A stretch of 64,000 bases of DNA from assembly GCA_051294375.1 (NCBI GenBank), contig CM119271.1, positions 10,006,291 to 10,070,290 on the forward strand, given 5' to 3'. The notes below the pieces were generated by a model. That model was not told the origin of the DNA, ran no database searches, and saw nothing but the letters and a program-made list of their open reading frames with translations. This document shows positions 54,134 through 58,260 of this stretch, one piece after another. The translations under genes and the position numbers were made by a program. Position 1 is the stretch's first letter. Every line of letters starts with the position of its first letter. This DNA comes from Paraspadella gotoi. Taxonomy: Eukaryota > Animalia > Chaetognatha.

Positions 54134-57100
54134 TCAATCTTCAGCCTTTGGTTTCCTAGCGTGAATGATTTCCACGAAGTCGGGCTTCAGCGAGGCGCCG
54201 CCAACTAGGAACCCGTCTATGTCGGGCTGCTGGGCCAGGGCCCGACAGTTGGCCGCCGTTACGGAGCCGCCGTAAATGATGCGGGTCATTCGAGACACCA
54301 TTGGTGACACGAAGTTTGAGAGCCACTCTCTGATAAAAGCGGAAAGCGAGGTCATTTTTAAAACTTAAAATTTTTTGTCAAATTTGTTACCAAGCTTTTA
54401 AATTCTAGAGGTTCATAAATTTACAAATCTCCTTTAACACTGTAGACTGGAACTTAAACTTTACTTCCAATCGATCGAAACCAACCTCAACGACTTGTGG
54501 ACATCCTGGGCTTGTTCGGGGGAGGCCGTGACGCCAGTTCCGATCGCCCACACGGGTTCGTACGCGATGATCACTTTGCTCCAACAAGTCACGTTCTCCG
54601 CGATGGCCGAGAGTTGCGCGTAATTGACTTCCAACGTCTGAAAACAAAAATGATAATAATTCGAATGGAAGCACGATTCGAACAATAAAGTGTATTAAGA
54701 TCCGTTACCTTTCCAGCCTCTCTCTCATCGAGCTTCTCTCCGATGCAGGCGACGACGAGTAGGTTGGCCTCCAACGCGTGCTTCACCTTCTGGCCGATGA
54801 GGGCGTCCGTCTCGCCGAAGACGTGACGCCGCTCCGAGTGACCCAAGATCACTTGACGAGCTCCAACGTCGATGAGCATCGCGGGAGAAACGTCGCCTGA
54901 TTTGGGAGAAAGTTTAAAAGAAAATTGATAGGTTTAATTTGAAACGGCAGATCTGAAAATGCAACTCGGCAAATCCAAATCACCCGTGAAGGCTCCCTTG
55001 GAAGTTTTGTAGCAATTCTGTCCGGCGACCTCGATGCGCCGGGTCAACTTTTGTCGGACGTAGGGCAGATAAAGAGCGGGCGGCGCCACCATGATCTCGG
55101 CGTCCGCGTCGATGGTGGCGTTGTTGAGGGAAGCGACGAGGGCGTCGATCGAGGAGAGATTCCCGTTCATCTTCCAGTTGCCGCCGACGTAAAAGCGTCG
55201 GGGAGCGATCCGCGGACTGCGGAAATATTCGCCGGCGAATCGAGCGGCGGAACCCAATTCCTCTTCGATGCGGAGAAGCTGATTGTATTTGGCGAGACGT
55301 TCGGAGCGACACGGGGCGCCCGTTTTGATCTAAGGGTAAAGTGCAGATAATTGATATCTATTATTCCGCCATTATCATATAATTCGATTGTGGTTTCTGG
55401 CACTGAAACTTTCATTCCTACCTGGCCCGCGCTAAGTCCGACAACAAGATCGGCGATGAACGTGTCTTCCGTCTCGCCGGATCGATGGGACACCATGACG
55501 CCCCATCCAGCCTCTTGGGCCGCCTTGCAAGCCTCTATGGATTCTGTAACGGAGCCTATCTGATTGACTTTAAGCAGGAGGGCATTGCAAGCTTTGGATT
55601 CGATAGCTGAGCGAATTCGCTTGGGGTTGGTGACTAAGAGATCGTCGCCAACAAGCTGGATGTCGGTGCTGCTCATAAACGCCTGCCAAGCCGGCCAGTC
55701 GTCCTGGTCAAAGGCGTCCTCGATGGAGACGATGGGATAACCGTCGATGAATTCCTCAAAAATAAAAAACAAACATTGATTTATCAAAAAAGTAAAGTAA
55801 ACATGAATAGGGATGGCCCCACTCAATGGGCGAGTCAAAAAGTAAAGTAAACATGAATTAGGGATGGCCCCACTCAATGGGCGAGTCAAAAAGTAAACAT
55901 GAATTAGGGATGGCCCCACTCAATGGGCGAGTCAAAAAGTAAAGTAAACATGAATTAGGGATGGCTCCACTCAATGGGCGAGTCAAAAAGTAAAGTAAAC
56001 ATGAATAGGGATGGCCCCACTCAATGGGCGAGTCAAAAATTTAGAATGAGTACATGAGCAAACGAAAATTTATAGCCAAATAATTAATTTTTAAATATTT
56101 ATTTATAGATAGGAAAGGCCAAAATTTTTTCTGAAATTTTTTTAATTTTAAGACCAGATTCAGATAGCTCATAAAAAACTGTTGACACAAAGTATAATTC
56201 GTTTTAAAATATTTTTATGATAAGTGAGTCAAAAATAAGAAAAACCGTAAAAAATTGTCATCTTTCGATGATTTTATCAATTTTTTTATAATTTCACTTA
56301 AAAATAGCCATAGCCGATGAAATTTAAATGCTAATGTATACAGCGTTAAAATAATCTATCATGACCATAGATAATGGTATTAAAATAATTTTTTTCAAAA
56401 ATGCTTTCTTCTAAGGGTACTCGCCTAATTAAAAATATTATATTACTATATAGAGCAAAAATTTTTTTTTTTAAATCTTAAAATTTTTTGATGGATTCTG
56501 ATAGAGCGTAAAAAGTTAAACAAGAAATATAATTACGTTTTCTAAGTGAAAATATAAAAAAAATGATAAAATCATCGAAAGATGACGATGATAATTTTTT
56601 ACAGTTTTTCTTATTTTTGACACTTATCGTAAAAATATTTAAAAAAGAATCATACTTTGTACTTTTTAAGAGCTATCTGAATCTGGTCTTAAAATTTAAA
56701 AATTCCCAAAAAAATGTTTGGCCTTTCCTATCTATAATTAAATATTAAAAAATTAATTACTAGGGTATAGAGCCATATTAGAATTTTTTTGTTCATTGAA
56801 AGTATTCTTAAAAATGTCTAAATATTCGTTTGAGCATGTACTCGCTCTAAATTTTTGACTCACCCCATTGAGTTTATATTATATATATTTCTTTTTTAAC
56901 TTTTTTATGCTTTTTTATGCTTTTTTAGAATCCATCAAAAAATTTTAAGATATCAAAAAAAAATTTTATAATGAGAAAAAAGACAAGTAACATTTAATAC
57001 TTAAATATTTAGTCAAGACAACTAAAAAAACTTTGCTAATAGTCGAAATTTTATATTATCTCCGGAATTGGTCCCTGACATGAACCGATATTTCTTCGAT

Positions 57101-58260
57101 ATTTACGATAAGCTTATTATCCAATATCCATTCTCAAGGGAGTTTCCCAATCACCTGGTAGAGCTTCTGCAACTGCGCGGGCGTTAGCCACTCCTCTGGA
57201 TTGGACTCGGGATTTTTAAAATCTAGATCGTAGACTGGCCCTTCTTTGCAAAACTCGGAAGCTGCGACGTCCATACCAATCTTGATTTTTCCCGTAAAAC
57301 CGGCCTTCTCGATAGCCGAGTTAATTAACTCCAGGGCCTCTTTGTTCGACAGAATGTTGGGGGCGAAACCGCCTTGAAAAAGCACAAGCAAGTTATTAAT
57401 TGCCTCTGCAACAGAAATAGTTTTGAATCAAATTTGAATCAAAAAATTAATTTCGTAAATTAAAGGAAAAAGAGTTGCGCTTTTTTTCCTTACCCTCGTC
57501 GCCAACGTTGCATGCGTCCTGTCCGTATTTACTCTTGAGTATGTTCTTTAAATGGTGATAAGTTTCCGAGCCCATTCTCATCGCTTCGGAAAACGAGGTG
57601 GCGCCGATTGGAAGGAGCATGAATTCCTAATTCGGAATCGGATGGGATCAATTTTCGAATTTTAAAGTTGTATTTTTATAAATTGCTTCTGCTAACCTGC
57701 ATGGCTAACTTGTTTCCGGCGTGACTTCCACCATTGATGACGTTAAACGCGGGAACAGGGAGAATAACATCGTTATTGCAGGCTAAATCAGCGATATGGC
57801 GGTACAGCGGAACCCCTTTCTTCGCCGCGCCTAATTTATTTTAAAACGAGGTTTATTCCGTGACTTTAAATTTGTAATTTTTTTTTTTTAAATTCGCACC
57901 TGCTTTACAGATGGCGAGGGACAATCCGAGAATAGCGTTGGCACCAAACTTATTCTTGTTCTCGGTTCCATCCAGCTCGATCATGAACTTGTCGATGGTC
58001 GCCTGATCCGTCACGTCCAAATTCTTCTCGATGAGAGCGGGTCCAAGGTTGTCGTTGACGTTGTCGACGGCCTTTTGGACTCCCTTGCCGTGGTACTCTT
58101 CTCCTTTGTCGCGAAGCTCGAGCGCCTCGTAGATGCCGGTCGAGGCGCCGGAGGGGACCGCGCCGCGGAAGAGGCCATCGTCGGTGGTGAGGTCGACCTC
58201 GACGGTGGGATTCCCGCGGGAATCGAAGATTTGACGAGCGAAAACCTTCTTGATGGACAT
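54134..58260 (-). CDS. ENO-TPI: Enolase-triosephosphate isomerase fusion protein
   Basis: Enolase [53 protein letters not shown] continues with no stop into [43 protein letters not shown]. Confidence 0.93.
55785..56040. repeat. About five tandem ~55-bp repeats in an enolase intron, containing the MITE end
   Basis: Unit aaagtaaagtaaacatgaat(t)agggatggccccactcaatgggcgagtcaa. Confidence 0.93.
56019..56873. mobile_element. MITE / foldback-type non-autonomous element in enolase intron
   Basis: ~55-bp imperfect TIRs (actcaatgggcgagtcaaaaatttag...ctaaatttttgactcaccccattgagt) and long internal inverted repeats ~56085-56280 vs ~56560-56760; no ORF. Confidence 0.8.

Follow-up and report, generated by a model that had tools for sequence, protein, structure and literature searches.

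We found that a 64,000-nucleotide stretch of the arrow worm Paraspadella gotoi genome (assembly GCA_051294375.1, contig CM119271.1, forward-strand positions 10,006,291 to 10,070,290; hereafter the window) contains a gene in which two glycolytic enzymes, enolase and triosephosphate isomerase (TPI), are fused in one reading frame. The fusion is real and was confirmed in sequencing runs and in related proteins. The gene lies on the minus strand at 54134..58260 (window coordinates are used throughout) and runs from an ATG at 58260 to a stop codon at 54136-54134 in nine exons, with eight introns that all have GT-AG ends (8/8). Splicing yields a frame of 2061 nt without internal stop, encoding 686 amino acids (aa; 74.5 kDa), of which residues 1-433 are enolase and residues 434-686 TPI. 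The gene model is collinear with L001, an intron-free mRNA of a relative that encodes the protein P0001.

The two enzymes meet within exon 6 (54984..55329, minus strand; aa 394-508), which holds the enolase C-terminus, the junction and the TPI N-terminus in a single frame. Taken alone, this exon matched Pfam Enolase_C (its residues 1-37) and TIM (47-115), both over the curated cut-offs, with no stop, intron or linker between them. The preliminary description, made from the letters of the window, had claimed precisely this continuity for an exon beginning near 55329, and the gene model and the Pfam matches bear it out. The fusion point is Arg433/Ile434 (55207..55212, minus strand), with Ile434 at the site of the start Met of free TPIs. 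Free animal enolases stop 1-3 residues beyond their final conserved Pro, and the Met of free TPIs stands a few residues ahead of GGNWK; because these ends match the junction, both enzymes are essentially whole and no linker has been added. The codon for Ile434 (55209-55207) is indeed ATC, one base from ATG as that description had pointed out, but little significance attaches to this, as 22 of 24 related junctions have Leu at that position and the other 2 have Met. The Met was seen only in P0015 and P0017, in which an internal start or a further trans-splice could give rise to a free TPI. The next in-frame ATG, at 55170 (Met447), lies past Asn444 and Lys446, again as described, and leaves the TPI half no usable start.

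Contigs from three of the four sequencing runs compared covered the junction, namely X8 contig 16 (53950-55713), X3 contig 9 (55121-55816) and an X10 contig (55019-55294), with 0 differences. X3 is a possible source of the window DNA; X8 and X10 are not marked as its source. The preliminary description had proposed mapping reads across the junction as a check; these contigs rule out an assembly error. Furthermore, a second X10 contig lacks the 92-bp intron 5 (55330..55421, minus strand), with ends exactly as predicted. This points to spliced RNA in X10, since the intron is dropped at its predicted ends. Run X9 held 0.67 of the words sampled from 54100-55800 (~0.66 is reckoned for exon-only sequence), yet it gave no cover of the junction and was not used as evidence for it; the read comparison may filter out conserved genes, which bears on this missing cover.

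The same junction was present in other proteins. With exon 6 as query against longer proteins, the best 120 of 7796 matches included 18 with this junction at identical spacing and 77-84% identity across exon 6. Thirteen of these relatives are JGI/Logan records (contigs of 1.7-3.3 kb, 12 of them near full length) and five are MERC records with chimeric fronts; together with the window protein they form eight lineages under 94% identity. A motif scan of metagenome contigs found two loci, L001 and L002. L001 is an intron-free mRNA that encodes the whole fusion P0001 exactly, and it starts with the 3'-terminal 26 nt of SL2.0, a chaetognath spliced leader (sequence in Table 3 of PMC2481426). A 20-nt piece of the leader was found in this one paper only. 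Because L001 opens with a chaetognath leader, the fusion-bearing lineage is very likely the arrow worms. P0001 was also the most identical relative of the window protein (84-85% for the enolase half and 79% for TPI), and the two fell into one clade in both trees, with support of 100/98 in the enolase tree and a Shimodaira–Hasegawa-like approximate likelihood ratio (SH-aLRT) value of 99 in the TPI tree, which is a quick tree. No 12-mer of the SL2.0 leader occurs within the 64-kb window, and the leader is known from the relative L001, not from the window's own transcript. Taken together, the fusion is common to at least eight species-level lineages, which are very likely Chaetognatha. A search of 50%-identity clusters was uninformative: its best 150 rows held no chaetognath fusions and mostly TPI or enolase fragments, and two junction fragments of the dinoflagellate type ranked high among them.

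Both halves of the protein appear complete. The enolase half is encoded, on the minus strand, by exon 1 (57900..58260, aa 1-120, N-terminal domain; Pfam Enolase_N, E 1e-50), exons 2 to 4 of the gene model (57697..57830, aa 121-165; 57494..57626, aa 166-209; 57155..57372, aa 210-282), exon 5 (55422..55754, aa 283-393; Pfam Enolase_C, E 6e-55) and the first part of exon 6. The TPI half occupies the remainder of exon 6 and, on the same strand, exon 7 (54709..54896, aa 509-571, with His528 and Glu530), exon 8 (54486..54637, aa 572-621, with the catalytic Glu598 and the lid loop) and exon 9 (54134..54329, aa 622-686 and the stop), over which an X10 contig extends (54036-54251). Enolase_N, Enolase_C and TIM all scored above cut-off in the window exons, and P0001 reached 541 bits against TIGR01060 (cut-off 300) and 241 bits against TIGR00419 (cut-off 130.6), the latter over profile positions 1-228 of 228.

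The preliminary description had called the catalytic motifs of both enzymes intact, and comparison with frog enolase and bird TPI agrees. In the enolase half, Ser40, His157, Glu166, Glu209, Asp244, Glu294, Asp319, Lys344, Arg373, Ser374 and Lys395 (window numbering), which we take to be the 11 catalytic or Mg-binding positions, are all kept. Of 23 enolase positions compared with frog enolase, all are the same but for one Met/Leu change. In the TPI half, Asn444, Lys446, His528 and Glu598, presumably the catalytic Asn11, Lys13, His95 and Glu165 of TPI, are present in the window and in 7/7 relatives, as are the lid and phosphate loops. Against bird TPI, 34 of 36 checked positions are the same, the catalytic four among them; the two departures, Glu77 to Asp and Lys174 to Val, are common to all 7 relatives checked, and dimer loop 3 is kept apart from Glu77 to Asp. 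Between the window and L001, the rate of non-synonymous change (dN) was 0.11 for enolase, with silent sites saturated, and 0.16 for TPI at a synonymous rate (dS) of 1.8; for the 35 codons around the junction, dN was 0.10 and dS 0.8. These codon comparisons indicate that both halves are under purifying selection. Thus, as judged from sequence, both halves look functional and each is presumably active.

Structure prediction was consistent with this. In the AlphaFold model of P0001, both domains were folded, with a mean predicted local distance difference test score (pLDDT) of 87, ordered junction blocks at 84-89 and a predicted template modelling score of 0.77; its enolase part matched human enolase with a template modelling score of 0.93 by target length. 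None of the 50 matches shown in a structure search with this model covers both halves. When P0001 was modelled with a second TPI half, a symmetric TPI dimer formed with a score of 0.90 (best control, 0.00), a mark reached by 51/78 solved and 2/108 mismatched microbial pairs. The runs agreed in at least 99% of contacts, with a partner pLDDT of at least 91. This dimer model may reflect memory of solved TPI dimers, and indicates only that one fused enolase need not block the dimer face.

We also looked for free TPI in the fused clade. Among the best 120 of 7990 matches of the TPI half to short proteins, 119 had 64-71% identity, and the only listed one above 71% (86%) was a 218-aa fragment without a start Met. 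This fragment, but 0/50 free TPIs in the tree, groups within the fused clade, and no free full-length TPI of the clade was found among these matches. The window TPI itself is not a free-standing chain with its own start codon. These comparisons suggest that the free TPI gene was replaced by the fusion, which is likely the principal or sole TPI in arrow worms.

A second fusion emerged from the enolase half. Among the best 120 of 7994 matches to it, the nearest listed after the enolase–TPI set were P0405 and P0406 (685 aa, 81-82% identity), in which enolase is followed by a cofactor-dependent phosphoglycerate mutase (PGAM). The enolase–PGAM set comprises P0405, P0406 and P0496-P0511, with P0405 and P0406 standing for clusters of 25 and 3 members, and the mutase motifs are intact in 16/16 members checked. 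Listed free enolases reach at most 79% identity to the P0001 enolase half, and fused forms 81-87%. In a 50-row tree, the enolase clades of enolase–TPI (8 rows, 100/98) and enolase–PGAM (6 rows, 100/99) are sisters (100/99) inside the animals, and their enolase halves share 79-84% identity. One short enolase motif was found in 34 database proteins, every one a member of the two fused families, and junction length is invariant within each. The simplest reading of these relationships is one stem-chaetognath enolase duplication, with each copy later fused to a different glycolytic enzyme. The PGAM half scored a little higher against PDB 5VVE (361 bits) and 1E58 (352) than against 1YFK (331), of which we take the last to be human-type PGAM1 and the first two to be non-animal cofactor-dependent mutases. 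It shares up to 68% identity with bacterial loci, and its Atlas neighbours are both eukaryotic and bacterial; a foreign origin of this half is possible from these matches.

Both fusions presumably reside in one genome. Second enolase-like contigs at about single-copy depth were present in X3 and X8 (57527-58240 and 55259-55519), the X3 piece without intron 5. Of their 18 differences, the 9 listed include readable codons that gave no type, and this second enolase could be the enolase–PGAM paralogue or prey DNA. Three MERC records with an enolase–PGAM-type front ahead of enolase–TPI (P0018, P0241 and P0242) were rejected as proof of a shared genome, as unrelated enolases are joined in the same way in P0003, P0010, P0013 and P0016.

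The explanation we favour, and consider likely as a whole, is that the gene makes a single protein with two activities that serves as the main or only TPI, and that duplicated enolase copies were each fused to an operon neighbour. The ancestral enolase would have been duplicated, and each copy likely fused with an adjacent glycolytic gene in an operon; in the present case the stop, the spacer and the TPI start would have been deleted. One spliced frame would then give a single uncut 74-kDa chain with both activities. Enolase and TPI are two-fold homodimers that act at non-consecutive glycolytic steps. Two dimer interfaces without a linker would, by symmetry, build a closed dimer, a tetramer or ring, or a filament, and a closed tetramer or small ring with independently working enzymes is predicted as the most likely. 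TPI and enolase have no substrate in common, so no channelling between them would be expected, and the gain would lie in fixed co-expression and co-location. The preliminary description had envisaged tetramers or filaments acting as a glycolytic scaffold; these are predictions, and its interpretation is supported in part.

Several points weigh against this explanation. The claim of one active protein comes from sequence and models, and the modelled TPI dimer carries enolase on one chain only. X10 as RNA is a guess, and no run is recorded as RNA; its depth is ~2.5-3, and its two contigs share only 17 bases, so that no single same-species RNA contig spans the gene. The protein searches scored only the ~8000 best word-sharing candidates, and this organism may have a divergent free TPI or enolase paralogue. 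The assignment of enolase–PGAM to chaetognaths comes from the tree and shared motifs. No relative with unfused, adjacent enolase and TPI genes was seen. Finally, the four window enolase introns within aa 60-318 (aa 121, 166, 210 and 283) match no intron site (~60, 80, 104, 126, 174, 222, 272 and 319) of L002, an intron-rich enolase of another animal whose contig stops before the enolase C-terminus and which served for intron sites only.

A doubtful but serious alternative is that the fusions were selected as a scaffold. Enolase–TPI and enolase–PGAM would pair through their enolase halves and polymerise through their TPI and PGAM faces, with PGAM passing 2-phosphoglycerate to enolase and TPI tethered alongside. 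Vertebrate enolase isoforms pair with each other, PGAM and enolase catalyse consecutive steps, and the TPI dimer face is free in the model. The scaffold also fits the sister relationship and close similarity of the two fused enolase clades, the lower identity of listed free enolases and the invariant junction length of each family, although the last fits a plain lack of indels as well. Moreover, co-occurrence in the same genome is backed by weak hints only, namely the second X3/X8 enolase with its inconclusive codons. In its strongest form, with no ordinary free enolase left in arrow worms and both fused paralogues cross-dimerising and polymerising into a covalently encoded metabolon or filament, the idea is similarly tentative.

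How the fusion arose is informed by its surroundings. Upstream of the enolase–TPI gene lies an ATP synthase subunit d-like gene (58474..59302, minus strand; Pfam on one exon, E 7e-5, below the curated cut-off), and downstream a NOP2/RsmB-type RNA methyltransferase gene (52009..53808, minus strand; NOP2 is our label and its 3' end is unmapped). All are on one strand. The enolase ATG lies 213 bp past the stop of the upstream gene, and the ATG of the downstream gene 325 bp past the TPI stop; the downstream gap shrinks below 325 bp when the 3' untranslated region, which extends to at least 54036, is counted. At 58329..58376 (minus strand), what may be the poly(A) signal of the gene upstream is followed by a T-rich tract and AG, a putative trans-splice acceptor. 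According to PMC12460157, 18% of Paraspadella genes are in operons with gaps of <250 bp, and chaetognaths underwent a burst of gene duplication; the upstream neighbour, at 213 bp, falls within this limit for same-strand neighbours. Chaetognath operons are resolved through spliced-leader trans-splicing (PMC2481426 and PMC12460157), and trans-splicing was confirmed in PMC2566580. The window resembles these operons in its same-strand housekeeping genes, its short spacers and the SL2.0 leader on a relative's mRNA. Chaetognath operons give separate proteins, whereas in the window two cistrons form one frame. The preliminary description had proposed that operon neighbours fused through loss of their spacer. 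The operon-like setting supports this, but no unfused arrangement was seen that would show the two genes as earlier neighbours; spacer loss within an operon is a plausible origin.

Retroposition is an unlikely route but has some points in its favour. In this scenario the cDNA of TPI alone, or a reverse transcript of a precursor with both genes, would have inserted in frame at the enolase 3' end, with introns gained later. The junction lies within an exon and has no linker, and the window has a single-exon FANCI frame of 1448 codons. This route is also open because the enolase introns match none in the other animal's gene, although intron turnover may be genome-wide and only one comparison gene was available. 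Two fusions to glycolytic partners would arise more easily from a glycolytic gene cluster than by random insertion. Thus, spacer deletion between operon neighbours is favoured because two separate fusions both took glycolytic partners.

It is very unlikely that the product is a polyprotein or alternatively processed, such that cutting of the junction, a second trans-splice or an internal start frees an ordinary TPI. Just ahead of the TPI part, an AG follows a short pyrimidine run (55218-55217), and Met stands at the old start in two of the related junctions. However, the window has no ATG between that AG and the catalytic Asn and Lys, the other 22 of the 24 relatives have Leu, and the junction, which is short and conserved, is ordered in the model. 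The lack of a free TPI of the clade among the matches listed also speaks against such processing.

Fusions of the same enzymes in the same order, enolase then TPI, occur in dinoflagellates. A further 62 of the best 120 exon-6 matches had a direct enolase-to-TPI junction of another type, and the named ones are dinoflagellates. Their ~705-aa proteins (Durusdinium, Pelagodinium and Biecheleria records) resemble the window protein in having a full enolase followed by a full TPI with a short junction. The dinoflagellate fusions are widespread (P0029, P0036, P0041, P0080, P0104, P0112 and P0514), and among them are longer chains, with GPI ahead of enolase–TPI in Alexandrium and GAPDH in that place in Zooxanthella. 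Such records are almost always unlabelled, though one JGI record reads phosphopyruvate hydratase/triosephosphate isomerase; we know these fusions from database records, and the literature search found no description of them. A separate protein with the organism field "Fibroc..." (P0043, 854 aa) has TPI ahead of enolase, the reverse order; it repeats the enolase start and may be misassembled.

A common origin of the chaetognath and dinoflagellate fusions, by descent or transfer, is highly improbable. In its favour are the identical domain order and approximately unbiased (AU) tests on the enolase half (23 rows, quick tree), in which a joint clade was not rejected (p 0.126 and 0.313). However, in the best trees the chaetognath enzymes group with those of animals for either half, and the dinoflagellate enzymes form a long branch of their own. 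The dinoflagellate junction is unrelated in sequence and mostly has 39 rather than 35 residues between anchors. Furthermore, identity to dinoflagellate fusions is lower (57-60%) than to free animal enolases (74-79%) and free TPIs (mostly 63-68%). The two fusions are therefore probably independent in origin on this sequence comparison. Finally, an assembly or sequencing artefact that erased a stop and a start has a negligible chance of being correct, as the same junction is found in the X3, X8 and X10 contigs and 18 database relatives and no support for it was found.

Other glycolytic fusions are less similar. Takishita et al. (2005) reportedly described a GAPDH–enolase transcriptional fusion in dinoflagellates. 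It is like the window gene in joining enolase to a glycolytic enzyme but differs in its partner, in having enolase second and in being non-animal. This dinoflagellate fusion is cited in PMC3527533, which also describes a TPI–GAPDH fusion in stramenopiles, some cercozoans and Thecamonas, with a patchy distribution and maybe several origins. There, too, TPI is joined to a second oligomeric glycolytic enzyme. TPI–GAPDH, however, has an N-terminal TPI, a C-terminal GAPDH, consecutive steps and a mitochondrial leader, whereas the window protein shows neither this arrangement nor a leader, starts at a normal enolase Met without extension and joins non-consecutive steps. The PGK–TPI fusion of the Thermotoga type (NCBIfam NF010569) has TPI as its C-terminal partner, as in the window, but is bacterial and has PGK as partner. 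P0001 scored 262 bits against its profile (cut-off 883), through the TPI part only, and is not a member. PGK is a monomer.

In the literature consulted, some of it in part and with most subscription journals outside the search, neither a natural fusion of enolase with TPI or PGAM nor any study of a chaetognath enolase was found. The word enolase is absent from the main text of PMC2481426 and PMC12460157, and no enolase or TPI term occurs in three PDF supplements of the latter; its spreadsheet, probably of gene tables, was outside the search and may include the fused gene. The preliminary description knew of no animal enolase–TPI fusion. This stands for animals, for which none was found in the literature, but the dinoflagellate records with the same order and the enolase–PGAM fusion had been missed. 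Glycolytic fusions are thus known from protists and bacteria, none was found described for animal enolase or TPI, and the chaetognath fusion is apparently undescribed.

The fusion is probably phylum-wide and doubled, with an enolase–TPI and an enolase–PGAM version. As a rare genomic character it can mark Chaetognatha and tell their paralogues apart, and it may exemplify how fused genes develop from an animal operon. The same non-consecutive pair recurs in dinoflagellates, which suggests that glycolytic partners preferentially dock at the C-terminus of enolase. In chaetognaths, some glycolytic steps may be hard-wired in assemblies of several enzymes. With two dimer faces on a rigid chain, the protein would form a defined, measurable assembly, a natural and purifiable test of the glycolytic metabolon. 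If the metabolon reading were true, this would be the first hard-wired assembly of its kind in an animal and a test of whether glycolytic clustering is selected.

Other features of the window are minor. The 1400-bp intron 4 (55755..57154, minus strand) contains, within 55787-57076, a 51-bp tandem array of 5 copies and a high-copy AT-rich element with inverted arms (56019-56304 and 56873-56539). The summed depth of this element is hundreds to 3000 versus 12-17 for the gene, and it is likely a repeat of the miniature inverted-repeat transposable element type. An Rfam scan of the window gave 0 matches. Nearly all Pfam-matching frames lie on the minus strand in long housekeeping runs; the Pfam comparison covered 72 of 145 pre-selected frames, most of them minus-strand. 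One run at 770-20695 includes ribosomal S14, acyl carrier, Mec-17, TBC, OAF, RF-1, Vma12, MCRS, FANCI and Rad51-like genes, and another at 31516-44830 includes Phe-tRNA synthetase, EZH2, short-chain dehydrogenase, deaminase and S11. Both are candidate operons of ten or more genes, compared with the longest of nine reported for Paraspadella. The FANCI frame (11888-16231, minus strand) is unbroken, its neighbours bear introns, and it is possibly a retrocopy captured in an operon. Lastly, about eight diverged copies of a ~99-bp unit at 24930-25723 probably form a coding repeat.

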